A stretch of 64,000 nucleotides of DNA, taken from positions 29,395-93,394 of the forward strand of contig PLIO01000202.1 in the NCBI GenBank assembly GCA_003140075.1, given 5' to 3'. Shown here in pieces: positions 47,179 through 62,054 of the stretch (its first letter is position 1; every line of letters begins with the position of its first letter). The notes under the pieces were generated by a model. That model was not told where the DNA came from and did not search any database. It saw only the letters and a program-made list of their open reading frames with translations. The DNA comes from Acidobacteriaceae bacterium. GTDB taxonomy: Bacteria; Acidobacteriota; Terriglobia; Terriglobales; Acidobacteriaceae. Both the position numbers and the translations under genes were made by a program.

Positions 47179-50100
47179 ATGGGACCGATTGAACGGCTTT
47201 TCTCTTGCATCCTGATGGCGTGCTTTCTTGGAAACTTTGCGCTGGCACAGGGCAGCTACCGGGCACAGCTTCGCGGTGTGGTGTCCGACGCAACGGGAGC
47301 GGTTATTCACGATGCGACCGTAACCATCACGGACGTAGGAACCAATATCTCCAGCACCGCTCGCACCGACGACAAGGGCGAATACTACTTCACTGGTTTG
47401 CGGCCATCCACCTATACGGTAAAGGCTGAGCTGAAGAGTTTTCGGACCACAGAGCGTACGGGTGTGGTGCTGGCCGTCGACCAGGAAGCCTCGCTCAATT
47501 TCACTCTGACTCCCGCCAGCGTAAGTGAGAGTGTTGTAGTCACCACGACCGCGCCGCTGCTGGACACGGACAACGCGACGCTGGGTACAGACATCACCCA
47601 CGAGTATGTGAACGACATCCCGTTGCTCAACCGGGATTACTTCGGGCTAACTTTCCTGGCGGCCGGCGTCACCGAGGTGGCAGGGTCAGGCACAACGGAT
47701 AACTATCCGTCGGGAACAAACTTCACTTCCAACGGGCAGCGCAACGCGACCGCCGAGATACGGTTGGACGGCGCCTTGATCAGCGCTCCGGAACAGGGTG
47801 AGGGCGGAAACTCCAACGTCTACTACGAGCCGTTGCTTGACTCCGTGCAGGAATTTAAAGTGCAGAACAATAGCTTCTCGGCGGAGTTCGGCAACAACGG
47901 TGGCACGGTCGTAAACATGGTTTTGAAGAGCGGGACCAACGCCTTTCATGGCACCGGCTGGTATTTCCTGCAGCGCCCGGGAATAGACGCTCGCGATTTC
48001 TTCAATCCAGCGCCCAGTCCCAAACCAGACAGCCGGCGCGACCAGGGTGGCTTTTCGCTGGGCGGCCCGATCAAGAAGAACAGAACATTTTTTTTTGTTG
48101 ACTTCGAGAAGGTGAGAAGCTCAAGCGCGGTCAGCGGGCTCGTGACCGTACCCACCATGGCGGAACGGCAAGGCGACTTCTCAGGACTTGAGAATAACAT
48201 TTACGACCCGAATGTAAATTGCGGGACGGCGACGAATGTCATCCGGCCGCAGGTTGGCCTTAACTGTAGCGGCCAGCAGATCGGACCTCTCAATCAAATT
48301 CCAGCAGCTGAAATTAACCCCATCGGACTAGCTGTGCTCAATCTCTACCCGCAGCCCAGCAACTCGAACGAATTCGATAACTATAACTACACAACGCTGA
48401 CGCAGGCTCCGGATTACCAGTTCGATATCAAACTAGACCACCAGATCAACGACAAGAATCGCATCAACGGCCGCTACAGCCGAAGCTGGAGCAACTACAC
48501 AACTCCGCTCACCTTAGGCGATAGCTTCGATAATGACGGAATAGCGAGCGGTGTGACCGTGGCGCAAAACGGCTCGTTCGAATATTCCTGGACGGTGAAC
48601 CCGCGGATTATCTGGACCAGCCACGCGGCGGTCGACCGAGTGCACGAATTGTCGCTACCCGGTATCCCCACGATTTCCGGTTTCAACGCCTCACTGCCCG
48701 CGGGAACTCAAGGATTGCCGCCGGTGTTCCAACAGGCCAACGGGATCGATGAGATGCCGACGTTCACGATGCAGGGGAATCTGCCGTGGAATGACCTTTA
48801 CGATCAGTGCTGCATCTACACTAAATTCGGCCACACCCTGGTGAGCTACTCGTCGCAGCTGGTGATTTCCCGGGGATCGCACCTGATCAAGGTGGGCGGG
48901 GAACAGAGAATTTTCTACAACAATTTCTGGCAGCCGAACAACCCGACCGGGCTCTTGACTTTTACGGATGAAGTCACATCTCCGACTCCGAACAGCGACT
49001 ATGATGCAACTGGACTTGTCACCACGGGCAACCCACTGGCCAGCCTGGCTTTTGGATACGGCGACAACATCAACGCCTCGAGTCAGCTGATCGTGACTCC
49101 CTCGGTGGCCAACCGGTCGTTGGAGACAGGGTTTTATATCCAGGATGACTGGAAGGTAAGCTCGAAGCTGACGGTGAATCTGGGTCTGCGCTACGAGTGG
49201 AGTTCGCCCTACACCTCGCGCAATAACCAGCTCGAATTCAGCAATTTCACGGCGGATTCTGGCGTAGGCATCAATCTTGCGAGCCTCCCCAGTACTGCGC
49301 CTGGGGGCACTCTGAGCGCGCAGGCGACTATGCAGAGTATCCCCGGGCTGAATCTTCCGACGACGCAGGAGTTGTATGGCACGACGCAGTTCGCCACGTC
49401 CAGCATGAGGACGGTTCCGACGTACCGCAAGGACATTGGACCGAGGCTGGGCTTTGCCTATGCGTTCGATTCGAAGACGGTGGTGCGCGGCGGAGTCGGC
49501 GTTTATTTTGGAATGAGCCCGGCCACAAATTTCCAGTATCCCGGCTCCGCGTTCCGCAAAACGGCCAACCTGTTTTTTACCAATGACGATTTTGCCACGC
49601 AATCGGCGACTCTGGAAAACCCGTTCCCCAACGGCTTTACCGGTCCGCAGGGTACGCAGTATGGCCAGTTTGCGAACTGGGGCTATCAAAACCCGAACGA
49701 TCTGGGCACGACCGCGGCGCGGGACGCCGACATCTACCAGTGGAATCTGGGAATGCAGCGAGAGCTGCCCAGCGAGATCGTGGTTGGCGTCGACTACGTT
49801 GCCAACCGCAGCACCCATCTACCCTGGTCTGGCACAAACAACCGGGCTTTCATCCCATCGTCTTTGCTGGGGCAGATTTCACAGGCTGTGCATTACGACA
49901 GCGACGTCACTCAAGGTAACGGCATCGGGAACTGCGATGCCAACAGTTGCGTAACCAACTTTCTTCAGACCCTGGTCGGCAACCCATTTTATTCCATGTT
50001 CAATACCCCTTGCACATCAACCCCTTCCAATCCTTGCTTCAATGAAGTTAATTCCAACTACGGCCAATCGACGCTGCCCTTGTCGAATCTGTTAAATAAG

Positions 50101-50967
50101 TACCCGCAATTCGCCGGCGACTTCGAGGGCCTGATGCTGGAGAGCGCGAATTCGTGGTACAACGCGATGCAGTTTCGCTTTCAGAAGCGCACGACGCACC
50201 ACGTTAGCTTCGAAGGTAGCTACACGATCTCGAAGGAGACCGATTATTCTTCGGCAGGTCGGAACAATTGGGTGGGAGCGCTCGGTCTGGGCCTTCCGCA
50301 GCAACTGGATAACCTGTCTGCGGAACACAGCATCGGTGCCAGCGACGCGCCACAGCGGCTCGCGGCCGCCGTGGTTGTAGACCTGCCCGTCGGCCGCAAA
50401 CAATGGATTGGCGGCGCTATGAACCGAGCGGTGGATGCAGTCATCGGAGGCTGGTCGGTCGCCACGATGATCACCCAACAATCGGGGCAACCCATGGCCA
50501 TCGGCCTGAACAACCCGCTTCTGGCCAACGGCAGCCAGCGTCCCGATGTCGTCTGCTCCCAGCTCAAGAGCGGGACCAGCATGCACGACGTGGCCTTGGA
50601 CTGGGAGAATGTGGGATCGGCGGCGAGCCCAACCTCGTATTTCAATGCGAATTGCTTTGCGGACCCGGGCGACCAGATTCCGGGCAACGCGCGACGCTAT
50701 TTTTCCGGCTTACGCGTTGACGGCATCCACAACGCGGATCTGAACCTTTACAAGTCGTTTGTGCCCAAAGAAGGCATGCGGCTGGAAGTGCGAGCGGAGG
50801 TTTTCAACTTCACCAATCACCCGCGCTTTGGGCAGCCGAATTCGGCCGTGGGGAGTGGGCCTGCGGGAAGTTCGACTCAGACGAATCCGTTTTTCGGGAC
50901 GATTTCCGGCGACGCTATTGGGGAAACGCCCCGCTTCTTCCAGTTTGGCGTGCGGTTCGAGTTCTGA
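47179..50967 (+). CDS. TonB-dependent outer-membrane receptor with N-terminal carboxypeptidase-regulatory-like domain (Acidobacteria-type)
   Basis: 1,262-aa ORF with AGGGAGG upstream and the signal peptide ...FLGNFALAQG. It has a CarboxypepD_reg-like beta-sandwich (GVVSDATGAVIHDATVTITD...TDDKGEYYF) and a plug-like segment. The long beta-barrel ends in the OMP terminal motif FGVRFEF. Confidence 0.8.
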   Translation: MGPIERLFSCILMACFLGNFALAQGSYRAQLRGVVSDATGAVIHDATVTITDVGTNISSTARTDDKGEYYFTGLRPSTYTVKAELKSFRTTERTGVVLAVDQEASLNFTLTPASVSESVVVTTTAPLLDTDNATLGTDITHEYVNDIPLLNRDYFGLTFLAAGVTEVAGSGTTDNYPSGTNFTSNGQRNATAEIRLDGALISAPEQGEGGNSNVYYEPLLDSVQEFKVQNNSFSAEFGNNGGTVVNMVLKSGTNAFHGTGWYFLQRPGIDARDFFNPAPSPKPDSRRDQGGFSLGGPIKKNRTFFFVDFEKVRSSSAVSGLVTVPTMAERQGDFSGLENNIYDPNVNCGTATNVIRPQVGLNCSGQQIGPLNQIPAAEINPIGLAVLNLYPQPSNSNEFDNYNYTTLTQAPDYQFDIKLDHQINDKNRINGRYSRSWSNYTTPLTLGDSFDNDGIASGVTVAQNGSFEYSWTVNPRIIWTSHAAVDRVHELSLPGIPTISGFNASLPAGTQGLPPVFQQANGIDEMPTFTMQGNLPWNDLYDQCCIYTKFGHTLVSYSSQLVISRGSHLIKVGGEQRIFYNNFWQPNNPTGLLTFTDEVTSPTPNSDYDATGLVTTGNPLASLAFGYGDNINASSQLIVTPSVANRSLETGFYIQDDWKVSSKLTVNLGLRYEWSSPYTSRNNQLEFSNFTADSGVGINLASLPSTAPGGTLSAQATMQSIPGLNLPTTQELYGTTQFATSSMRTVPTYRKDIGPRLGFAYAFDSKTVVRGGVGVYFGMSPATNFQYPGSAFRKTANLFFTNDDFATQSATLENPFPNGFTGPQGTQYGQFANWGYQNPNDLGTTAARDADIYQWNLGMQRELPSEIVVGVDYVANRSTHLPWSGTNNRAFIPSSLLGQISQAVHYDSDVTQGNGIGNCDANSCVTNFLQTLVGNPFYSMFNTPCTSTPSNPCFNEVNSNYGQSTLPLSNLLNKYPQFAGDFEGLMLESANSWYNAMQFRFQKRTTHHVSFEGSYTISKETDYSSAGRNNWVGALGLGLPQQLDNLSAEHSIGASDAPQRLAAAVVVDLPVGRKQWIGGAMNRAVDAVIGGWSVATMITQQSGQPMAIGLNNPLLANGSQRPDVVCSQLKSGTSMHDVALDWENVGSAASPTSYFNANCFADPGDQIPGNARRYFSGLRVDGIHNADLNLYKSFVPKEGMRLEVRAEVFNFTNHPRFGQPNSAVGSGPAGSSTQTNPFFGTISGDAIGETPRFFQFGVRFEF

Positions 50968-51123: not shown

Positions 51124-51262
51124 CACCCTTGGGCCACTCATTCCCGGATCGTGCCATTGCCACGGCGCGACTCCGGCCTGAGGATACTCGTGCTTGGGAA
51201 ATGGCACTCTAGATTGAATGCTATTTCCGGCGGACAAACGAGAGCGGATCAAGAGAATCAAA

Positions 51263-52117
51263 ATGCTGGAAATGAATTCAAGAGCGGCGCTGGCCGGACC
51301 TGCGATGAATCAGGCAAACCAGCAACATCGTCGGCTCCTGGTCGCGCTCACCCTTCTGCTCGTTGCTCTCGCCGTTGTTCTGGTAAAAGACCGCGACTTC
51401 TGGTTTGGCTCGGACGACGCGACTGACTCTGAAGCCGCGAGCTCGGAAAGCTTTACGAAGGCTGCGGCGGTCGCTGTGCCAGCCAAGACCGGCGAAGCTC
51501 CCGCGTCGCGCGCAGTGATCGCGAAGAACCGGATCGCTTCGAAGACGGCCACCGAACTGGCGGCCCAAGAGACATTAAATCAAGAGACGTTCCATAAAGA
51601 GACATTACATAAGGACGCTGCTGCCCAGGACTCGCCGGTAGTCGCAACCAGCCGGGTTGTCCTGCCTCCGCTGGATGTCGAAGTGGTTGCCGGCGACACG
51701 CACCGCACTGTTCATCCGGGAAGCAGTTTCGCAAAAGTGCAGATTGCCAGCGACTCAACCCGCAACTCAACCGTCAGCGCATCAGATGTGACGCTGCCTT
51801 CGAATGCAGCCGAGCGCGAGCATCTTTCTACCGCGAGTATTCCAGAACAAACGGTTGACGCCTCGTATCCCTTGCTGGGGCAGCACGCTCGAGTGCAGGG
51901 TTCGGTGGTGTTGCAGGCGGTAGTTGGCGCCGACGGCACAATCGAAGACCTGCGCGTGCTGAGCGGTCCCGCCATACTCACTGCTGCGGCGCAGCAAGCA
52001 GTCCGCCAGTGGCGCTTCAAGCCCTATCTCCAGAACGGACAGCCGGTCGAGACCAAAGCCAGAATCACCGTCAACTTCTCGATTCGGATCTCCGACAACC
52101 CTCCCCAAACGAGCTAG
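51263..52117 (+). CDS. tonB: Energy transducer TonB
   Basis: ~284 aa from ATG 51263. It has an N-terminal TM segment (LLVALTLLLVALAVVLV) and a low-complexity spacer with the QETLNQETFHKETLHK repeat. The C-terminal TonB domain is YPLLGQHARVQGSVVLQAVVGADGTIEDLRVLSGPAILTAAAQQAVRQWRFKPY. Confidence 0.75.
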   Translation: MLEMNSRAALAGPAMNQANQQHRRLLVALTLLLVALAVVLVKDRDFWFGSDDATDSEAASSESFTKAAAVAVPAKTGEAPASRAVIAKNRIASKTATELAAQETLNQETFHKETLHKDAAAQDSPVVATSRVVLPPLDVEVVAGDTHRTVHPGSSFAKVQIASDSTRNSTVSASDVTLPSNAAEREHLSTASIPEQTVDASYPLLGQHARVQGSVVLQAVVGADGTIEDLRVLSGPAILTAAAQQAVRQWRFKPYLQNGQPVETKARITVNFSIRISDNPPQTS

Positions 52118-52209
52118 GCCGCCGAGTCGAACCTTCGCATCCACCCCAACTGACAAAATTGTGATACTTAGTATCGAAATTATTCATGAACAGGGCACGC
52201 AGTGGTAAC

Positions 52210-52238
52210 TTGACGCGGTAGTTGGTTCGGCCTACTAT
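52210..52238 (+). promoter_or_regulatory. Candidate sigma70-type promoter of the sulfur-assimilation leader (TTGACG-N17-TACTAT)
   Basis: Near-consensus hexamers with optimal 17-nt spacing. The -10 hexamer ends 9 nt before ATG 52248. Confidence 0.4.
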
Positions 52239-52247
52239 CTTCGTAGA

Positions 52248-52337
52248 ATGATACATTTTAGCAGTCTTCGCCAGATGTGTATGTGTGCATGTTGTTGTGC
52301 ATGCGTGTGTTCTGGCGCAGGGAGGCTGCTGACTTAG
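52248..52337 (+). CDS. Cysteine-rich leader peptide (29 aa: MIHFSSLRQMCMCACCCACVCSGAGRLLT; alternative start ATG 52275 gives 20 aa)
   Basis: Small ORF with 7 Cys codons (6 TGT, 1 TGC) within 11 codons (52278-52310). It lies between a promoter-like element and a strong terminator, directly upstream of the sulfite reductase operon. It is not in the ORF track because it is under 60 aa. Confidence 0.65.
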   Translation: MIHFSSLRQMCMCACCCACVCSGAGRLLT

Positions 52338-52391
52338 AAGTTTCATAAGCATCATCAGCAATCATCACCCACCGCCAGAGAGCCTCTGGCG
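52269..52391 (+). promoter_or_regulatory. Four-segment attenuator core: CGCCAGA (52269-75) / TCTGGCG (52311-17) / CGCCAGA (52373-79) / TCTGGCG (52385-91)
   Basis: Two exact copies of a 7-mer alternate with two exact copies of its reverse complement. This allows mutually exclusive 1:2, 2:3 and 3:4 pairings. The 2:3 pairing extends through GGG 52320-22 with CCC 52368-70. The Cys codons sit in the loop between segments 1 and 2. Confidence 0.6.
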
Positions 52392-52403
52392 GTGGTTTTT
52401 TTT
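52369..52403 (+). terminator. Strong intrinsic terminator (attenuator) upstream of sulfite reductase
   Basis: A perfect 12-bp stem, CCACCGCCAGAG (52369-80) paired with CTCTGGCGGTGG (52384-95), has a 3-nt loop and is followed by eight T (52396-52403). The sir ATG lies 27 nt downstream. Confidence 0.85.
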
Positions 52404-52429
52404 GCACCTCAAGTTGAGAAGGTCAATTT

Positions 52430-54148
52430 ATGGCAAGTCGTCCTATGGCAAGTCCAGTCAAAGAAACCAAGGCGCAGAAGTCGGAACGCCTGAAGCGCGC
52501 CATGAACCCATGGGACGGTCTCTCCGAAATTCGCCGCTTCGCGCGAGAAGGCTTCTCCTCGATTCCAGCCGAGTGGATCGGCACGTATTTCCGATGGTGG
52601 GGTGTTTACACGCAGGGTGATGGAGCGGGGGTGGTCGGCGGCAAGGATGGCCAGGGATTGGCGTTGCCGTTCTTCATGCTGCGAATTCGCATTCCCAACG
52701 GCCTTTTGCGGTCGGATCAGCTACGAACCATCGCCGATCTTACCCGCCGTTATGCGCGCGGAACCGCCGATCTCACGGTGCGGCAGAACATTCAGTTGCA
52801 CTGGATCACGATCGAAGCGCTCCCGGAAGTGCTGGAGCAACTCTGGCGGGTGGGTCTGAATACGACCGGCTCCTGCGGCGATGTCACCCGCAACATTACG
52901 GGCTGCCCCGTCGCCGGCGTGGATGCCGATGAAATCTGCGATGCTTCATCTCTTGCCTTGGAAGCCGATCGTATGCTGGCGGGGAATGCCGAATTCTACA
53001 ACCTGCCCCGCAAGTTCAAGATTTCCATCACTGGATGCCGCGTATGGTGCCCGTACCCAGAGATCAACGATGTGGGCTTCACTGCGCTCCAGCGCGTGGT
53101 GAATGGAAACGCTGAGATTGGCTTTGCCTTGCGCGTAGGTGGCGGACTTTCCACTGAGCCTTACCTGGGCGCACCGCTGGATGCTTTCGTCCGCTGGAAT
53201 CAGGTGCTACCGGTAATTCGTGGAGTCGCCGAGCTGTTTCGCGACTCCGATCAATTGCGCGAACATCGCGAACGGGCGCGGCTTAAATTTCTCTTTCTGC
53301 GACATGGCTGGACGGCACACGAATTCCAAGAAGAACTGGAGCGGCGGATCGGATTTCAGCTTGACCCTGCCGAGCCCGAACAGGCGCCGGCAGACGTCTA
53401 CCGGGATCATATCGGCATCCACGCACAAAAGCAGCCTGGTTTGTGCTATGTGGGGGCCACGGTTCTGCGCGGCAGGATTACGCCCGAACAAATGGACGCA
53501 GCGGCCAATCTGGCCGAACGATTCGCGAGCGGCGAATTACGAACTACCAACATGCAGAACCTCCTGATCGTCAACGTCCCTCGACCGCAGGCTGACGAGT
53601 TAGCCAAGGAACTGGGTGCGATAGGACTGCCGGTTAGCGGGTCACCGTTCTGGCGCGGCGCCATCGCTTGCAGCGGCACGGAGTTTTGCAAGCTGGCGAT
53701 TACGGAAACGAAGAGCTTCTCGCGCTGGCTGGTGGAGGAATTGGAAGAACGTCTGCCCGGTTTCGATCAGCACCTGAAGCTGCACGTCACCGGCTGCCCC
53801 AATAGTTGCGGGCAGCACTGGATCGCCGACATTGGAATTGAAGGCAAGAAGATCAAGGTCGATGGGCAAATGCTGGATGCCTATTACTTCTGCCTGGGTG
53901 GAGCGCTCGGTTTGAATCAATCGATTGCGAGGCCGGTCGGATATCGCTGCCTCGCCACCGAGGTTCCCGAAGCCATCGAGCGGCTTCTGCGCAGGTACCT
54001 CGCCCAGGGAAGTGCGAGCGAGAATCTCCGGCACTTTTTTGCTCGCCACAGCGATACCGAATTACGCGATTACCTGGCCGGACAATCGATCGATCCCGTC
54101 GCCCGTGATGTGCCCGAGGGACGCGTGCCGAGCGGAGTGGAAGGTTAA
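52430..54148 (+). CDS. sir: Sulfite reductase, ferredoxin-dependent type (siroheme/[4Fe-4S] hemoprotein)
   Basis: 572-aa ORF with two nitrite/sulfite-reductase ferredoxin-like half domains. The cluster/siroheme Cys motifs are CSGTEFCKLAITETK and TGCPNSCGQHWIADIG. Confidence 0.85.
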   Translation: MASRPMASPVKETKAQKSERLKRAMNPWDGLSEIRRFAREGFSSIPAEWIGTYFRWWGVYTQGDGAGVVGGKDGQGLALPFFMLRIRIPNGLLRSDQLRTIADLTRRYARGTADLTVRQNIQLHWITIEALPEVLEQLWRVGLNTTGSCGDVTRNITGCPVAGVDADEICDASSLALEADRMLAGNAEFYNLPRKFKISITGCRVWCPYPEINDVGFTALQRVVNGNAEIGFALRVGGGLSTEPYLGAPLDAFVRWNQVLPVIRGVAELFRDSDQLREHRERARLKFLFLRHGWTAHEFQEELERRIGFQLDPAEPEQAPADVYRDHIGIHAQKQPGLCYVGATVLRGRITPEQMDAAANLAERFASGELRTTNMQNLLIVNVPRPQADELAKELGAIGLPVSGSPFWRGAIACSGTEFCKLAITETKSFSRWLVEELEERLPGFDQHLKLHVTGCPNSCGQHWIADIGIEGKKIKVDGQMLDAYYFCLGGALGLNQSIARPVGYRCLATEVPEAIERLLRRYLAQGSASENLRHFFARHSDTELRDYLAGQSIDPVARDVPEGRVPSGVEG

Positions 54149-54154
54149 GAAACG

Positions 54155-54790
54155 ATGAGCAGCTCATTTCCAATGTTTTTGAAACTCGAAGGCAAGCGTT
54201 GCCTTGTGGTGGGCGCCGGCAAAGTAGGCGAACCCAAGATTCTCGGTCTGATCGACACGGGTGCATCCATCCACGTGCTTGCTTTGGAAGCGTCCGACGA
54301 AGTAAAGGAGTGGGCAAGAGCGGGGAAGATTACGCTCGAACTCCGCCCGTTTGTCGAGACAGATCTCGCCGGAGTATTTCTGACTGTGGTAGCCACAGCG
54401 TCACGCACCCTGAACGAGTCGATTTATCGGGAAGCGCAACGGCGTGGAGTTCTGTGCAATGTGGTGGACGTTCCGGAATATTGCGACTTCTACTATCCCG
54501 CCGTTGTGCGCCGGGGCGATCTGCAGATTGCAATCTCCACCAGCGGACAAAGTCCATCGCTCGCCCAAAAGCTCAGGCAGCAGATCGAGCGGCAATTCGG
54601 CCCCGGATATGCGTCATGGGTCGCAGAACTGGGAGCCACGCGAAAGCTCGTGCTGGCCAGTGACCTCAGTCCCCAACGCAAAAGCGATCTGTTGCACTCG
54701 TTGGCCAGCCGTCAGGCGCTGGAAGCCACATTGATCGAAGAGTCCACCGACAGAGAATCCGCGAAAGAGGACAGGAGGGTAACCGTATGA
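54155..54790 (+). CDS. Precorrin-2 dehydrogenase / sirohydrochlorin ferrochelatase (CysG N-terminal-domain / SirC-like)
   Basis: 211-aa ORF with FPMFLKLEGKRCLVVGAGKVG (NAD Rossmann) and the DLQIAISTSGQSP motif. Confidence 0.8.
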   Translation: MSSSFPMFLKLEGKRCLVVGAGKVGEPKILGLIDTGASIHVLALEASDEVKEWARAGKITLELRPFVETDLAGVFLTVVATASRTLNESIYREAQRRGVLCNVVDVPEYCDFYYPAVVRRGDLQIAISTSGQSPSLAQKLRQQIERQFGPGYASWVAELGATRKLVLASDLSPQRKSDLLHSLASRQALEATLIEESTDRESAKEDRRVTV

Positions 54791-55632
54791 ACGGCAAGGT
54801 ATATCTGGTGGGAGCGGGCCCGGGCGATCCCGAACTGCTCACTGTAAAAGCTCTGCGCTTGCTTCGGAGTGCCGACGTGGTTCTTCACGACGATCTCGTC
54901 CCTCGAGAAATATTGAACTTGATTCCGCCAACCGCTCAAGCGCGCAACGTTGGCAAACGTTGCGGGAGCAAGACCATGCGGCAAGAGGAGATCAACTTCC
55001 TAATGGTGACGCTGGCTGGTTCTGGATTGCAAGTAGTACGGCTGAAGAGCGGAGATCCGCTGATCTTCGGCCGGGCCGGAGAAGAGATCGAAGCGCTGCG
55101 ACGATCAACCATCGAATATGAAATTGTTCCCGGCGTCACCTCGGCCCTAGGAGCGGCCGCAAGTCTCGGAATTCCGCTCACCCATCGGAAGATGTCCTCC
55201 ACGCTTGTGCTGACGGCTGGCCATCGGGCTCCCGGCAACGACGACGAGGATTGGAGCCACTTTGCGTCGGACGAAGCGACTCTTGTCGTCTACATGCCGG
55301 GTGACAGGTATGGCGAGATTTCCAGCAGGCTGAAAGCCGCCGGATTCCCGGGCGAGACACCTTGCGCCATTATTTCCCGGGCGACGACTCCAGAGCAGCG
55401 GATACACAGCACATCAGTTTCGGATCTGCATCGAGCGCCGAGGCTCGCGTCTCCAACGCTGCTGGTCGTCGGCGAAGTAGTGAGATTTGCCGCTCATGAT
55501 TTATTCGATCGGGGTTTCGTCGAGGCTACGGCGACCTTCCCTGAACTGGAGCCGGGATTGGCAACTGCGCTGGCGCGACGGGTTCTTTTGCCGCCCGAAA
55601 TCTTGAGAGCAGATGAGGAACACTTGTCATGA
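54787..55632 (+). CDS. cobA: Uroporphyrinogen-III C-methyltransferase
   Basis: 281-aa ORF with an ATGA overlap with the upstream gene. Motifs: VYLVGAGPGDPELLTVKA, VVRLKSGDPLIFGRAGEE and VPGVTSA. Confidence 0.85.
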   Translation: MNGKVYLVGAGPGDPELLTVKALRLLRSADVVLHDDLVPREILNLIPPTAQARNVGKRCGSKTMRQEEINFLMVTLAGSGLQVVRLKSGDPLIFGRAGEEIEALRRSTIEYEIVPGVTSALGAAASLGIPLTHRKMSSTLVLTAGHRAPGNDDEDWSHFASDEATLVVYMPGDRYGEISSRLKAAGFPGETPCAIISRATTPEQRIHSTSVSDLHRAPRLASPTLLVVGEVVRFAAHDLFDRGFVEATATFPELEPGLATALARRVLLPPEILRADEEHLS

Positions 55633-56318
55633 AAGAGCAAGTTGTGGAGCTGCAGATCCCCGCGGAAGCCTGGTCACCTGAGCATGTTCTCCGTTGGGCG
55701 TTCGATAACTTCTCAAATTCGGTTGCGATCGCCTCGGCTTTCGGCGCCGAGGGGATGGTCCTTATCGATATGGCGTCCCGTGTACGCCAGAGTTTTCGTC
55801 TCTTCACTCTGGACACCGAATTTCTTTTTCCCGAGACCTATGACCTGATGGACCAAGTGGAACAGAAGTATGGCGTCGTGATTGAAAGGGTTCTTTCGCT
55901 CGCGTCGCCGGAGGAGCAGGAACGAGCTCATGGTCCGGCTCTCTGGCAACGGAACCCCGATCAATGCTGCAGCCTGCGGAAAGTCGAGCCGCTGCGGCGC
56001 AAGCTAGGAGAACTGCGCGCCTGGATCACCAGCATCCGCCGCGATCAAACCGCAGCGCGCGCCAGCGCCAGAAAGATCGAGTGGGACGAGAAATTTGGCC
56101 TGGTAAAGATCAACCCGATCGCCGACTGGACTTCAAAGCAGGTATGGCGACACATCTACGAGCACGACGTGCCCTACAACAGGCTGCACGACCGTGACTA
56201 TCCCAGCATCGGCTGCACTCATTGCACGCGCGCCGTGCACGCAGGCGAAGACCCAAGAGCGGGACGATGGTCTGGATCTTCTAAAACGGAGTGCGGGCTG
56301 CACATCCTCCAGCCTTAA
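55629..56318 (+). CDS. cysH: Phosphoadenylyl-/adenylyl-sulfate reductase (thioredoxin); Fe-S type, so probably APS-specific
   Basis: 229-aa ORF with an ATGA overlap with the upstream gene. It has the C-terminal KTECGLH catalytic motif plus the CC...CxxC set (DQCCSLRK and GCTHCT) that marks cluster-containing APS reductases. Confidence 0.85.
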   Translation: MKEQVVELQIPAEAWSPEHVLRWAFDNFSNSVAIASAFGAEGMVLIDMASRVRQSFRLFTLDTEFLFPETYDLMDQVEQKYGVVIERVLSLASPEEQERAHGPALWQRNPDQCCSLRKVEPLRRKLGELRAWITSIRRDQTAARASARKIEWDEKFGLVKINPIADWTSKQVWRHIYEHDVPYNRLHDRDYPSIGCTHCTRAVHAGEDPRAGRWSGSSKTECGLHILQP

Positions 56319-56347
56319 TCGCGTTGCCCAGAAGCTTTGCTCGCCTG

Positions 56348-58147
56348 ATGTATCCTCAAGGTGTGCTGGCCGGCGAAGAATACAAACAGTGTCTCAAAGA
56401 CCGCGAAAATCGTGTCGCTCGCCACGAAGCAGTTCATATTCGTCTGGGTAATATCCGCTTGGTTCTCGTCATTGTAGCCGCGGGCATAGCTTGGGAATCT
56501 CTGAGAAGGCACAGGCACACACTCTCGCCCTGGTGGATGGCTGTGCCACTGATTCTGTTCGTATTCGTCGCGGCCTATCATTCGCGCGTCCTACGAGCCC
56601 GCGACCTCGCCGAGCGTGCGGTCGCCTTCTATCGCAGAGGATTAGCCCGAATCGAAGACCGTTGGCGGGGCACCGGTGAGGCCGGCGAACGTTTCAACGA
56701 CCCTCATCATGTCTACGCGGCCGACCTCGATTTGTTTGGCCGAGGCGGTTTGTTCGAACTTCTTTCCACTGCGCGCACGCGCATCGGCGAGGAGACTCTC
56801 GCCAAGTGGCTGCTGTCGCCTTCAGCCGTGAGTCAGATTGAAGAGCGGCACGTTGCGGTTCGTGAGCTGCGTGATCAGCTCGATCTCCGGGAGGATTTGG
56901 CGGTACTCGGCGAAGATGCCCGCGTGGGAGTGTATCCGGAAGCGCTGTTGGGTTGGGCTGAGGCGCCGAACCAGATGAAGCCAGAATGGATTCAATGGTT
57001 GGCGCCTTTCCTCGGAGCAGCGGCACTTGCGGGCGCCGTGGTTTGGGGTCGCTTGGGAATCGCCACTCCGTTTCTTTTGATTGTCCTGATCGAGGCACTC
57101 ATAACCTATGGACTGCGCAAGCCGGTGGGTGAGGTGCTGCATGGTTCGGAGCAGGCACTGCGTGATCTGGGCTTGCTTTCGGGCCTCCTGGCGCGAATCG
57201 AACAGCACACCTTTCGCGCGCCGCGGTTGCACTCGCTGCAAAGCGAACTTTCTTCGCATCAGCTCCCAGCTTCCCGCGCAATCGCCCGCCTGAGAACCAT
57301 CGTTGATTTGAGCGATTCGCGCGACAACGTGTTTGTCCGCCTACTGAATGTCCCGCTCCTGTATTCGGTGCAGGTGGCGTTTGCGGCCGAACGATGGAGG
57401 CGGGCGCACGGCCACGCTGTGCGGTCCTGGCTGAGTGCGATTGGCGAAATCGAAGCGCTTCTCTGTTTGGCTGCCTACAGCTATGAACATCCTGACGATC
57501 AATTCCCCGAGTTTACGGAGGGGGTTGCATGTTTCGATGGCATAGAGATCGGACACCCACTCATCCCGGCCGGAACCTGTATTCGTAATAATGTGCGCCT
57601 ATCCGATGGCAGGCACGTCCTGCTCGTCAGCGGTTCGAATATGTCGGGCAAGAGCACGTTGCTCCGTGCGGTCGGAATCAATGTCGTGCTCGCAATGGCC
57701 GGTGCTCCGGTCCGCGCTCAGCGTCTTCGACTGACGCGGCTTCAAGTGGGTGCCAGCATCCGCGTGAACGATTCTTTGCAGGAGGGCAGTTCGCGCTTTT
57801 ATGCGGAAATCACCCGGCTCCGTAAACTTTTCGACTTTTCCAGTGATGCTCCGCGATTGCTATTCCTGTTGGATGAACTCTTGCAAGGCACGAACTCAAA
57901 CGACCGCAGGATTGGAGCAGAAGGGGTTGTTCGCGCGCTGCTGAACCGGGGAGCGATTGGATTGGTGAGCACTCACGATTTGGCCCTGGTCGATATCGGC
58001 GGCTCACTGAGTGGTCAATTGTGCAACGTCCATTTTCAGGAAGACTTTGAAAACGAAAGGATGCATTTCGATTACAAGTTGCAGGAAGGGGTGGTCACGA
58101 AGAGCAATGGACTCGCTCTCATGAGGTCGATCGGGCTCGACGTGTGA
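56348..58147 (+). CDS. Membrane-anchored MutS-related ATPase (MutS domain V only, no mismatch-recognition domain)
   Basis: ~599 aa from ATG 56348. The N-terminal half has four hydrophobic helices (LVLVIVAAGIAWESL, WWMAVPLILFVFVAAY, WLAPFLGAAALAGAVVW, PFLLIVLIEALITYG). The C-terminal half has Walker A GSNMSGKSTLLR, Walker B LFLLDELLQGTN and STHD. Confidence 0.75.
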   Translation: MYPQGVLAGEEYKQCLKDRENRVARHEAVHIRLGNIRLVLVIVAAGIAWESLRRHRHTLSPWWMAVPLILFVFVAAYHSRVLRARDLAERAVAFYRRGLARIEDRWRGTGEAGERFNDPHHVYAADLDLFGRGGLFELLSTARTRIGEETLAKWLLSPSAVSQIEERHVAVRELRDQLDLREDLAVLGEDARVGVYPEALLGWAEAPNQMKPEWIQWLAPFLGAAALAGAVVWGRLGIATPFLLIVLIEALITYGLRKPVGEVLHGSEQALRDLGLLSGLLARIEQHTFRAPRLHSLQSELSSHQLPASRAIARLRTIVDLSDSRDNVFVRLLNVPLLYSVQVAFAAERWRRAHGHAVRSWLSAIGEIEALLCLAAYSYEHPDDQFPEFTEGVACFDGIEIGHPLIPAGTCIRNNVRLSDGRHVLLVSGSNMSGKSTLLRAVGINVVLAMAGAPVRAQRLRLTRLQVGASIRVNDSLQEGSSRFYAEITRLRKLFDFSSDAPRLLFLLDELLQGTNSNDRRIGAEGVVRALLNRGAIGLVSTHDLALVDIGGSLSGQLCNVHFQEDFENERMHFDYKLQEGVVTKSNGLALMRSIGLDV

Positions 58148-58427
58148 TCGTGCCGCTCACCATTCCCCACTCTCGTCAGGAGGAGCCACCATCGGCGAAA
58201 TGCACGAGGACTCGGTTTTCTCTTGACATCGCGGCCGCTTTAAAACACCATAAGCGGTCCCTTTGAAGCGATCCACTATACCCCTGAGTTTGTGGCCTTT
58301 CCGAAGCTCGCCCGGACTCGGATCTGTGGGCGGCGGCCGGAGGCCCGACTGTCTACAATTCATCCGTGGTGAGTTGATGTCCATTCTGGCGAGCGGGAGC
58401 AACTGGCCAAGAAATGGAGATAGGACC

Positions 58428-61400
58428 ATGAGTTCAAAGTCTGGTGCGATGTGCGCGTTGTCCTTTTTTGTTCTCGTCGCGCTGCCACTCTTCGCCCAGA
58501 CCTCTGGGTCCATCACAGGCACGATCTTAGACAATACGGGCGCGGCGGTTTCCGGGGCCGGGGTTTCAGTGAGCGAACCGGCAACGGGCTTTCGCCGCAG
58601 CGCTACATCCAATGCGGACGGCGAATATTTGGTCGCCGGTCTCGGAGCCGCTACTTACGACATCACCATCACGGCGAAGGGCTTCAAGACATTTGAAGCC
58701 AAGCGGGTGATTCTCCACGTTGGCGAAAAGCTGAGAGTGGACACGAAACTGGTCATCGGCAAAGTCACGAGTGAGATCGTCGTGGAAGGAAGCTCGGTCG
58801 GCAAAGTCGAAACTCAGTCGTCGGAACTAGCCGGCACCATTAGCGGAGACCAGATCAGCCAGTTGGAGTTGAACGGACGCGATTTCACTACTCTCATCAA
58901 GTTGATTCCGGGAGTCAGCGATCAGACGGGACAGGATGACGGAACAGTGGGGCCGTCCGGCAGTGTCTCTTACGCCGTTAACGGTGGCCGCACTGAGTTC
59001 AATAACTGGCAGATCGACGGTGGCGAAGTTCTTGATACGGGCAGCAACGCAAATATCAACGTCTACCCTAACATTGACGCACTCGCCGAGGTTCGGGTAC
59101 TCACTTCCACCTACGGCGCCCAGTACGGACGCAACGGATCCGGCACCATTGAAGCCGTTACGAAATCAGGCACCAATCAGTTTCACGGCGAAGCCTTCGA
59201 GTTCATTCGTAATGCTGCGTTCAATGCGCATAACTATTTCGATCAGCCCGGCACATCGAAAACCTATTACAACAAGAATGACTTTGGATATATCGTCGGT
59301 GGCCCCATTAAGAAGGATAAGATATTTTTCTTCTGGTCGCAGGAATTCCGCCGCGAAAATGTTCCGTTCGTTTATAACAACCTGAACGCGTATCTTCCCA
59401 ACGCAACAGAGCGAGCGGGGGATTTCAGCGACGTCTGTCCCGCGCCTGGTACGCCGTTCGTAAGGGCGGGCACCACTCCTGGAGGGAGGGAGGTGGTTAG
59501 CATCGATTGCCCGGCATACACCGGGGGAGTGGATCGGGCGGGCAATAATTATTACCTTGGATTCCCCGACAACACCATCCCCGCAAGTCTACTCGATACC
59601 ACCAATACCGGCCCCATTCTTGCGAATGTTCCGCTGCCGAACGTCGGGCACGCATTTGTGGGGACTATTGCTTCGCCCACCAGTTGGCACGAAGAACTGA
59701 TCAAGGTAGACGACCAGGTTACTCCCAAATTGCGGGCGAACATCCGCTTTATTCACGATTCCTGGGCGCAGAATTACCCGATTTCGCCCTGGTCGGGATC
59801 GAGCGTGCCGGCAATCGGAGGGACGCTGCAGGGCCCCGGAATCAGCGTGGTGACAAGTTTGACCGCCGCGCTTTCGCCCACGCTGCTCAACGAATTTGTC
59901 TTCAGCTACGCCGCCAACCACTTGCATCTGTTTAATACAGGAACCGCATGGCAGCGTCGGTCCAGCATGACCATGACTGGGATTTTTGAAAACGGTTTCA
60001 ACGGAACCATTCCGGCTTTTGGAATTGGTGGTCCGAGCCATTTCAATTTCTCCGTCGATCCGGGTTATCTACCCTGGAATAACTCCAACCCCACCTATAG
60101 CTTCCATGATAATTTGACCAAGAACATAAGGCGGCACAACTTACAATTCGGAGGCTACTTCGCTGCGATCGAGAAAAACGAACCAGCGGAGGAAGAACCG
60201 AATGGAAGCTTGGGTTATTACTCGAATCCGAACACGTTTTATAACCAGCCCAACGCCTCCACTGGCCCCTATTCCAGTACGGGTAATGGTTTCGCGGACA
60301 TGCTGGTGGGGTTTATCAACACGTTCGCTCAACCTAACCTGAACCTGAAGTACTACAACCGTTACAAGGTATTTGAGCCATATTTTCAGGATGATTGGCG
60401 GGCCACTAAGAGGCTAACGTTGAACCTTGGCGTGAGAGTAAGCTTATACGGCAGCTATTATGAGCGCTACGGGAACGCTTACAATTTTGATCCCAATGCC
60501 TATGTAGCCGCCGATGCCCCGGTGGTTGATCAGAATAGCGGGGCCCTTGACTTCGGCCCGGGACAAAGCGTTTACGACATGACCGGAATGGTGCACTGCG
60601 GGTACAACGGAGTGCATAGTAGTTGCATGTCCGGTCACTTATTCAATCCGGCTCCGAGAATTGGCTTTGCTTTTGATCCGAAGGGAGACGGTAAAACCGC
60701 GATCCGCGCGGGTTATGGGATCTTTTTCGAACACGCGAATGGCAACGACGCCAATACCGAATCGCTCGAAGGCAATCCTCCCAGCATCATTGCGCCGGTT
60801 CAGTTCTACATCTCCGGCTACACGAATATAGGGGGCACGGCCGCGAGCGGACAGTCGCTTCTGTATCCGCTGGGCGGCGGTGACAGTCAGTTGACCTCCA
60901 TTACCACCACGACGCAGTGGCCCTACATCCAGCAATACCATCTCGATATCCAACGCGAACTGGCGCGGAATACCTTACTGACTGTGGCTTATGTCGGCGC
61001 CAAGGGGACTCATTTATCGCAGCAACTTGATCGCAACCAAATCCATTCCACTCCGGCCTCGCAAAATCCGTACCTGTCGGGACAAATCATTACCAGTAGT
61101 GACTGCAACAACGTATCGAATAGCCCCCCTACCCTCGGCAATGGAACTACTCCAGTCACCGGTCAGGCACTTATTAATCTCAACGTTGCCTGCGGCAATG
61201 TAAATCCCGACCTTTTCCGTCCCTACCAAGGTTATGACTCGATTTACGGCATAATCGGGGGAGCTAACTCGGAATACAACGCGCTGCAAGTCTCAGGAAG
61301 ACGGAATGCCGGTGGATTGCAGCTCACGCTCGCCTATACCTATAGCCACTCGATTGACAATTCGTCGGATCGCTACGATTCCTCGTTCGTCGACTCTTAC

Positions 61401-62054
61401 AATCTGTCTTCATATCGTGCCAGCTCCTCCTATGATCAGCGTCATATCTTAACGGTGAGCTACATCTACGATCTGCCAATTCTGCGGCACGCAATGGGCT
61501 TGATGCAGTCGCTGTTGGGAGGCTGGCAGGTTTCGGGAATTACCACCGCTCAGACGGGCGAGCCGGTAACTATCGTAAATGGCGGCACCTATGACAATGC
61601 GGGAGTTGGCAATGAGGTGGGATCGGGTTCCTATGCCGATCTGGTCGGAGATCCGCACGGCTCGAAGCCTCAGTTTAATCCGGTGCCGAACGTTGTGTAT
61701 GGTCCGCTGCTCGACAATCCCGGAGCCTACTCGCAACCCACAGGGCTTACTTTTGGCGACTCGGGTCGAAATTCCCTGGCCGGACCGGGCCGCCTCAATT
61801 TTGACATGGGATTGTTTAAGCACTTCAAGGTAAAGGAGTCGATGGCGTTGGAGTTTCGCGCCGAAGCTTTCAACATCTTCAACCATCCGCAATGGAATGG
61901 CATAAACAACACCTCTTGTGGGTTGGAAATTAACTCGGGTGCGGACGATTGTGTGAACGGCGACGACGTTGGAGATGCTCCCAACAATTTCCTGCATCCG
62001 AGTGGAGCCCACAATGGCCGGATCGGTGAATTCGGTTTGAAGTTCATCTTCTGA
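58428..62054 (+). CDS. TonB-dependent outer-membrane receptor with N-terminal carboxypeptidase-regulatory-like domain (paralog 2)
   Basis: 1,208 aa from ATG 58428 (GGAGA upstream), with the signal peptide MSSKSGAMCALSFFVLVALPLFAQT. It has the same architecture as 47179-50967 and ends FGLKFIF. Confidence 0.8.
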   Translation: MSSKSGAMCALSFFVLVALPLFAQTSGSITGTILDNTGAAVSGAGVSVSEPATGFRRSATSNADGEYLVAGLGAATYDITITAKGFKTFEAKRVILHVGEKLRVDTKLVIGKVTSEIVVEGSSVGKVETQSSELAGTISGDQISQLELNGRDFTTLIKLIPGVSDQTGQDDGTVGPSGSVSYAVNGGRTEFNNWQIDGGEVLDTGSNANINVYPNIDALAEVRVLTSTYGAQYGRNGSGTIEAVTKSGTNQFHGEAFEFIRNAAFNAHNYFDQPGTSKTYYNKNDFGYIVGGPIKKDKIFFFWSQEFRRENVPFVYNNLNAYLPNATERAGDFSDVCPAPGTPFVRAGTTPGGREVVSIDCPAYTGGVDRAGNNYYLGFPDNTIPASLLDTTNTGPILANVPLPNVGHAFVGTIASPTSWHEELIKVDDQVTPKLRANIRFIHDSWAQNYPISPWSGSSVPAIGGTLQGPGISVVTSLTAALSPTLLNEFVFSYAANHLHLFNTGTAWQRRSSMTMTGIFENGFNGTIPAFGIGGPSHFNFSVDPGYLPWNNSNPTYSFHDNLTKNIRRHNLQFGGYFAAIEKNEPAEEEPNGSLGYYSNPNTFYNQPNASTGPYSSTGNGFADMLVGFINTFAQPNLNLKYYNRYKVFEPYFQDDWRATKRLTLNLGVRVSLYGSYYERYGNAYNFDPNAYVAADAPVVDQNSGALDFGPGQSVYDMTGMVHCGYNGVHSSCMSGHLFNPAPRIGFAFDPKGDGKTAIRAGYGIFFEHANGNDANTESLEGNPPSIIAPVQFYISGYTNIGGTAASGQSLLYPLGGGDSQLTSITTTTQWPYIQQYHLDIQRELARNTLLTVAYVGAKGTHLSQQLDRNQIHSTPASQNPYLSGQIITSSDCNNVSNSPPTLGNGTTPVTGQALINLNVACGNVNPDLFRPYQGYDSIYGIIGGANSEYNALQVSGRRNAGGLQLTLAYTYSHSIDNSSDRYDSSFVDSYNLSSYRASSSYDQRHILTVSYIYDLPILRHAMGLMQSLLGGWQVSGITTAQTGEPVTIVNGGTYDNAGVGNEVGSGSYADLVGDPHGSKPQFNPVPNVVYGPLLDNPGAYSQPTGLTFGDSGRNSLAGPGRLNFDMGLFKHFKVKESMALEFRAEAFNIFNHPQWNGINNTSCGLEINSGADDCVNGDDVGDAPNNFLHPSGAHNGRIGEFGLKFIF

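Follow-up and report, generated by a model that had tools for sequence, protein, structure and literature searches.

A probable cysteine-sensing transcription attenuator upstream of a sulfite reductase, siroheme synthesis and cysH operon in Acidobacteriota

Among the amino acids sensed by classical transcription attenuators, such as the trpL leader of E. coli, the hisL leader of Salmonella and the leu, thr, ilv and pheA leaders, cysteine has long been conspicuously absent. In mycobacteria, ribosome pausing on leader open reading frames (ORFs) with poly-Cys runs regulates cysteine genes (10.1101/834739); the leader studied there hides a ribosome-binding site (RBS) and causes no termination (10.1101/834739), and Canestrari et al. 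2020 stated that no such mechanism had been described for cysteine before (10.1101/834739; Mol Microbiol 114:93). Earlier, and for Actinobacteria, Seliverstov et al. 2005 had predicted leader peptides for cysteine that were “without obvious terminators” and of unknown mode of action (PMC1262725). Here we examine a leader that occupies positions 52210–52403 of a 64,000-nucleotide (nt) stretch of DNA from an Acidobacteriaceae bacterium (contig PLIO01000202.1; this whole stretch is hereafter called the window, its positions serve as coordinates throughout, and all features lie on its + strand). Judged by its sequence, this leader is probably a ribosome-mediated transcription attenuator of the trp/his type, sensing charged tRNA-Cys and controlling the sir-siroheme-cysH operon that follows it.

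A conserved, terminator-based Cys attenuator would show how the abundant Acidobacteriota of soil and peat, including Sulfotelmatobacter-like lineages, control sulfate assimilation, in a phylum for which almost no attenuators have an assigned function (PMC2965389). We found no report of a cysteine attenuator in Acidobacteria in the openly searchable literature (subscription-only papers lie outside that scope), and the element seems to be undescribed in Acidobacteriota. The initial annotation of this stretch held that Cys leaders were known only from sporadic computational predictions; that view was too narrow, in that such leaders have been demonstrated experimentally in mycobacteria, where they act on translation (10.1101/834739).

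The mechanism proposed here is the same as that of the classical attenuators, and the seven His codons of hisL are comparable to the 7–9 regulatory codons of the present leaders. The differences are that the amino acid sensed would be cysteine, that the phylum is Acidobacteriota, and that neither sequence nor covariance models show any similarity to the classical leader families of Rfam. Moreover, the regulatory codons are found not inside segment 1 but in the loop that separates it from segment 2, the ORF starts a few nt from the predicted 5′ end and has no Shine-Dalgarno sequence, and an additional conserved hairpin surrounds the stop codon.

The leaderless polycysteine short ORFs of mycobacteria (Ms5788A and others; 10.1101/834739) resemble the present leader in being unannotated, in carrying a Cys run, and in starting at the 5′ end of the mRNA or close to it, as predicted for the present leader from its promoter. 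Like it, they are placed before a number of operons for cysteine and sulfur, a thiosulfate sulfurtransferase (rhodanese-type) gene among them, and in both systems sensing would be by ribosome pausing, with operon-by-operon control adding up to a regulon. Here too, as in the mycobacterial ORFs, two or more Cys codons in succession stand before operons related to cysteine. However, a canonical terminator and antiterminator are conserved here, and the Cys run sits in the middle of the ORF, followed by 8–9 conserved codons, whereas the mycobacterial run is C-terminal. The origin is independent, in a different phylum and with different peptides, such that two phyla appear to have arrived separately at Cys-run leader ORFs before the same kinds of gene. 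The candidates from Mycobacterium, Propionibacterium acnes and Bifidobacterium longum (PMC1262725) are also Cys-run short ORFs before cys or cbs operons and were also found by comparative genomics, but they lack obvious terminators, whereas all the parts of an attenuator are present here.

The leader opens with a sigma-70-type promoter identified by sequence match (52210–52238), consisting of a −35 box TTGACG (52210–52215), a 17-nt spacer and a −10 box TACTAT (52233–52238); it is the promoter that the initial annotation had named, and one of just two sigma-70-like matches between 51000 and 59000. There follows an ORF of 29 codons plus TAG, MIHFSSLRQMCMCACCCACVCSGAGRLLT, from the ATG at 52248 to the stop codon ending at 52337. 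Its regulatory tract (52278–52310) holds seven Cys codons (codons 11, 13, 15, 16, 17, 19 and 21), mostly TGT, the rarer codon; both the ORF and the placement of all seven within codons 11–21 are as first annotated. No other short ORF in the six frames of the 64-kb window has at least five Cys in 12 codons. Gene callers miss this ORF, which is uncalled in three public assemblies of the same sequence, and a profile of the leader peptides matched just seven unannotated proteins among 5.8 billion.

At the RNA level the leader contains four segments with alternative pairings. Segment 1 (52258–52275, core CGCCAGA at 52269–52275) pairs with segment 2 and its extension, and the loop of this 1:2 helix is closed by an inner hairpin formed by the Cys-codon tract itself (52280–52307; −11.0 kcal/mol). 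Within segment 2 (52310–52332), positions 52322–52332 pair with an extension of segment 1, and UUCUGGCG (52310–52317) together with GGG (52320–52322) pairs with segment 3 (52368–52380), which serves in both structures, as 5′ arm in the terminator and as 3′ strand in the antiterminator. Segment 4 (52384–52395) is the 3′ arm of the terminator and is followed by the U-tract (T8, 52396–52403), so that the terminator combines a perfect 12-bp stem (52369–52395), whose loop is of 3 nt, with T8. The loop of the antiterminator is closed by a hairpin around the stop codon (52327–52360; −7.0 kcal/mol), in which UGCUGA (52327–52332) pairs with UCAGCA (52355–52360).

These elements bear out the annotation in its details: the stem and T8 of the terminator, the extension of the 2:3 pairing by GGG/CCC (52320–52322 with 52368–52370), and the 7-mer CGCCAGA at 52269 and 52373 with its complement at 52311 and 52385 were all recovered. 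The 7-mer has 24 copies on both strands of the window, against 14.8 expected, and four copies in alternating orientation within 123 nt are far beyond chance. Folding of 52245–52405, as had been proposed with the annotation, gave −67.7 kcal/mol (z = −5.6), and 0 of 200 shuffled sequences were as stable.

To evaluate these pairings requires related leaders. A scan with the Sir protein of the window against one genome per species yielded 80 sir loci, nearly all in genome bins of Acidobacteriota (class Terriglobia), with Sir proteins 63–90% identical to that of the window. A covariance model was built on the 1:2 + 3:4 pairings, and 73 leaders were aligned to it (alignment A5) with a stricter threshold that kept out reverse-strand matches to the palindromic terminator; we used this alignment instead of a plain MAFFT alignment of 75 leaders, which was poor in its 5′ part. 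In the window, the leader is the single forward-strand match of the model.

All three pairings of the 1:2 / 2:3 / 3:4 geometry originally claimed for the window are conserved and hold against controls. On the 73-leader alignment, which was fitted to 1:2 + 3:4 and not to 2:3, the 2:3 core is 93.5% paired; shifted controls of the whole 2:3 structure reach only 27–47%. Nine pairs of this structure show double changes, and its covariation score was reached by 0 of 500 shuffles. The terminator helix is 93.2% paired, with a family median of −25.7 kcal/mol, and the stop-codon hairpin is 76.9% paired, with double changes in five of its six pairs. In a test that was free of any alignment, the 2:3 duplex had medians of −22.3 kcal/mol in energy and of 13 nt in its overlap with the terminator's 5′ arm. 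A consensus structure computed with RNAalifold for a close subgroup recovered just the terminator and small hairpins, and it is uninformative owing to competition between structures and too little divergence among the sequences.

The spacing of these elements is almost fixed as well. We measured it in 71 leaders, assuming that a ribosome covers about 12 nt past the first base of its A site; the footprint sizes are those of established knowledge. Segment 2 begins 23–24 nt before the stop codon in all 71, and segment 3 begins 24–32 nt past it; a ribosome that has reached the stop codon would come between these two segments. Most Cys codons lie 15–36 nt before segment 2, and 70 of the 71 leaders have at least three Cys codons at least 13 nt before it, where a pause would leave segment 2 free.

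The start of the ORF is similarly constrained. A promoter of the form TTGACN-N16–18-TANNNT is present in 69 of 75 homologous leaders, in 56 of which the ATG lies 7–10 nt past the −10 box, most commonly 9–10 nt. In the window this distance is 9 nt, which predicts a 5′ untranslated region of about 0–4 nt and leaves no room for a Shine-Dalgarno sequence before the leader ORF. Because the ATG lies just 7–10 nt past the −10 box, the predicted start site would make the leader ORF leaderless or nearly so. We do not use the missing Shine-Dalgarno sequence as an argument in itself, since tetramers resembling such a sequence are scarce before sir (19 of 75) as well as before the leader ORF (9 of 69).

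What we infer from this arrangement is where transcription starts, that the ORF is translated, that ribosomes pause at its Cys codons, that the choice between structures is kinetic and that the element responds to cysteine. Transcription would start a few nt before the ATG at 52248, and the 29-codon ORF would be translated at once. If cysteine is plentiful, the ribosome would reach the stop codon, leaving segment 2 (its part 52310–52322) behind it to pair with segment 1; segment 3 would then be free for segment 4, and the 12-bp/U8 terminator would stop transcription at about 52403. If there were no translation at all, the outcome would be the same, i.e., 1:2 + 3:4 and termination. If charged Cys-tRNA is scarce, the ribosome would pause at Cys codons of the tract that separates the first two segments, keeping segment 1 from segment 2, with its leading edge halted just short of segment 2. 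Segment 2 would then pair with segment 3 as soon as the latter is transcribed, and this antiterminator would pre-empt the terminator, allowing RNA polymerase to read into sir.

The predicted energies agree with termination as the default state and raise a difficulty for the switch. In the window, the 1:2 hairpin including the inner hairpin of the Cys tract has −38.5 kcal/mol, and the antiterminator (−25.0 kcal/mol) compares with −23.3 kcal/mol for the terminator. Several observations count against an attenuator, and the first is that the whole leader reaches −66.0 kcal/mol with 1:2 + 3:4 enforced but only −49.4 kcal/mol with 2:3; because the former state is the more stable one, termination would be the default. 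Likewise, masking by a ribosome in the equilibrium fold of the full leader never removes the terminator, whatever is masked, although such folds tell little about attenuation, which is a kinetic process. Since the terminator always wins at equilibrium, a switch could only be kinetic, like that of the trp leader. In transcripts cut before segment 4, an A site placed at codons 11–18 leaves 10–11 nt of segment 3 paired with segment 2, and as the A site moves from codon 19 to codon 23 this pairing is lost step by step until none remains; these shortened transcripts are the informative ones. A further point on the negative side is that a pause at either of the last two Cys codons would cover segment 2 itself.

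The remaining objections concern conservation and the 5′ end. The 1:2 pairing is the least conserved part (65–80% paired among the 73 leaders, with double changes), and the 2:3 core CUGGCG/CGCCAG is almost invariant. Because the core hardly varies, most of the covariation of 2:3 is contributed by the pairs at its flanks and by subfamilies that have diverged; and because the sequence of segment 2 resembles that of segment 4, part of it is shared with the terminator. The ATG is only about 3–4 nt downstream of the start site expected by E. coli standards, with no Shine-Dalgarno sequence. Finally, the organism is known from metagenomes alone, and the support for an attenuator, though strong, is comparative, made up of results obtained in silico, namely the sequence parts, their conservation with compensatory changes, their fixed spacing and their linkage to sulfur operons.

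An alternative explanation is that the leader is a translational attenuator of the mycobacterial type, in which pausing at Cys codons opens a structure that hides the RBS of sir, with little or no control of termination. This is how the only experimentally studied Cys leader ORFs act, and the idea gains something from a group of compact loci (L016, L020, L021, L027, L042, L046 and L053) in which no more than 5 nt separate the end of the U-tract from the sir ATG. In the 3′ arm of their terminators, a GGUGGG 10–15 nt before that ATG could double as an RBS, in which case the hairpin could block translation as well as transcription. However, the Shine-Dalgarno-like GAGAAGG that precedes sir in the window (52416–52422) lies outside every predicted helix, the Cys tract pairs inside the 5′ hairpin and not with the start region of sir, and in all homologues a U-tract comes immediately after a G+C-rich stem, the signature of intrinsic termination. 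We consider purely translational control unlikely.

The compact loci also bear on a second alternative, that the short ORF encodes a functional Cys-rich micropeptide (e.g., metal-binding or thiol-active) and the hairpin is merely its own terminator, unrelated to the control of sir. Because these loci leave no room for a second promoter between terminator and sir, their sir genes depend on read-through. To weigh this alternative further requires the conservation of the peptide itself. Alignment of the related leaders, a comparison suggested with the annotation, showed an in-frame Cys-rich short ORF, then a hairpin and T-run, upstream of sir in 74 of the 80 sir loci. This outcome supports the attenuator, which by the annotation's own criterion would have failed had orthologous leaders lacked such an ORF. 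The conserved ORFs have 26–33 codons with a median of eight Cys codons, which make up 24% of leader codons but 2.1% of codons in Sir. At Cys columns the residue stays Cys while the codon alternates between TGT and TGC (e.g., TGC 31, TGT 22), and TGT accounts for 61% of Cys codons in leaders versus 9% in the adjacent sir genes. Comparable use of rare codons is known in other attenuators.

In favour of a micropeptide, the C-terminal residues SGAGRLLT are conserved; Canestrari et al. did not exclude independent functions of such peptides either (10.1101/834739). But the codons for SGAGRLLT coincide with segment 2 and the stop-codon hairpin, and those of their third positions that take part in pairing are conserved, which indicates constraint on the RNA. 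In contrast, the N-terminal residues vary freely. In that a micropeptide also gives no role to the conserved complementarity between segment 2 and the terminator arm, and would have to coexist with compact loci that depend on read-through, we regard this explanation as very unlikely.

The reading frame argues against a third possibility, that the hairpins respond to a small molecule (as a riboswitch), to tRNA (as in a T-box) or to an RNA-binding protein, and that the ORF is incidental. There is precedent in Firmicutes, where S-box (S-adenosylmethionine) riboswitches and T-box leaders control cysteine and methionine genes (PMC1262725), likewise through termination and antitermination in the 5′ leader. 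These RNAs sense a metabolite or uncharged tRNA directly, with no translated ORF, and neither has a match here. The stretch 51500–53000, searched with cmscan against Rfam 15 at E values up to 10, gave four matches, all far below gathering scores and none of them to a leader, T-box or riboswitch family (the best, SgrS, reached 16.8 bits against a cut-off of 37); the initial annotation was thus right that no family, at least in Rfam 15, covers the element. Moreover, nearly everything upstream of segment 2 is coding, with no conserved multi-helix aptamer to be seen, and it is the ORF, its frame, its start and its stop that are conserved, the stop codon falling in one aligned column in 71 of 73 leaders (TAA 54, TAG 16, TGA 1). 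Sensing without a ribosome is accordingly highly improbable.

The last alternative is that the Cys codons merely reflect simple sequence rich in TG, a concern already raised in the annotation, and that the 7-mers recur by chance; it can be dismissed almost entirely: although the tract TGTTGTTGT is of low complexity and its other frames read the same bases as Leu or Val, an ATG-initiated ORF spans the Cys run in the Cys frame of 74 of 75 leaders but in the Val/Ala frame of only 3 and the Leu frame of only 11, the reverse strand of the same regions yields 0–4 Cys, scattered Cys codons beyond the TGT run are conserved across diverged leaders that use both TGT and TGC and differ in length by whole codons, and the homologous loci, given the 63–90% identity of their Sir proteins to that of the window, are not assembly duplicates.

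The six sir loci with no Cys leader are assigned to Rokubacteria or Methylomirabilota. Four loci of this kind (L052, ~2670–2885; L054, ~2680–2890; L069; and L080) have instead an ORF of 69–81 residues with two CxxC pairs (zinc-ribbon-like) that ends about 95–120 nt before sir. Three divergent leaders (L055, L056 and L063; leader regions at ~2790–2975) keep the same architecture but have just 3–4 Cys codons (e.g., MNLIRQMLRCAGATNAACCLASISGQGDSRT); such leaders may be decaying or may have been retuned in their sensitivity.

The genes downstream of the leader were those that the annotation had listed, and family matches agree with it. The first, sir (52430–54148), encodes a ferredoxin-type sulfite/nitrite reductase of the NirA family (Pfam NIR_SIR and NIR_SIR_ferr). 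Its protein scores below both NCBIfam equivalog cut-offs, and the NirA-family match is itself below cut-off, so that we call it a sulfite reductase because of its operon context. It is followed by a siroheme synthase N-terminal-type enzyme (54155–54790), a uroporphyrinogen-III C-methyltransferase (54787–55632), and CysH, a phosphoadenylyl-sulfate/adenylyl-sulfate reductase (55629–56318). In most loci the genes that come after the leader keep to this order, sir-sirC-cobA-cysH. Genes upstream of the leader are not conserved, falling into 45 clusters among 73 loci, and the TonB-like gene that lies upstream in the window occupies that position in none of the 80 related loci.

Leaders of other operons were sought by scanning metagenomes for a Cys run plus segment 2. 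The matches were mostly sir-sirC-cobA-cysH operons, but also five sirC-cobA-cysH operons without sir, leaders before cysD-cysN-cysH-tauE, and several before a rhodanese sulfurtransferase gene, a context that a separate protein search reached as well. The theme common to the operons that bear such leaders is sulfur assimilation towards cysteine. The rhodanese leaders (L087, L109, L112, L098, L157 and L081) and the cysD leaders (L192, L194, L104 and L084) form peptide subfamilies of their own, ending in ...SSGAGRLGS, ...SGAGRLVT or ...SGAGRLAV. The terminators of these other operons have the 3′ arm GGCAGGTGGG, so that the CCAGA/CCGGAA of segment 3 remains in the loop. This loop sequence is nevertheless complementary to segment 2, both in the rhodanese and cysD leaders and in L065, L067 and L079.

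We lean, with less assurance than for the single leader, toward a broader interpretation, that Terriglobia run the whole of assimilatory sulfate reduction (cysDN, cysH, sulfite reductase, siroheme synthesis and rhodanese) as a ribosome-sensed regulon, each operon having its own copy of the near-leaderless Cys ORF and terminator. Were this correct, cysteine would here have its first attenuator based on a terminator, and the mycobacterial Cys ‘ribulon’ would have been re-invented independently, with its output in transcription instead of translation. With the ORF overlooked by gene callers and the element covered by no Rfam family, many genome bins could be better annotated by means of a model derived from these loci.

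The end of cysH is overlapped by 28 nt by an ORF (56291–58147) with MutS domains III and V, which scores far below the MutS family cut-offs and does not lie downstream of cysH in the related loci. The sulfur operon is flanked by two outer-membrane beta-barrels of about 1260 residues (47179–50967 and 58263–62054), both with CarboxypepD_reg and OMP_b-brl_4 domains and resembling TonB-dependent receptors, and also by a protein with a TonB C-terminal domain (51218–52117).

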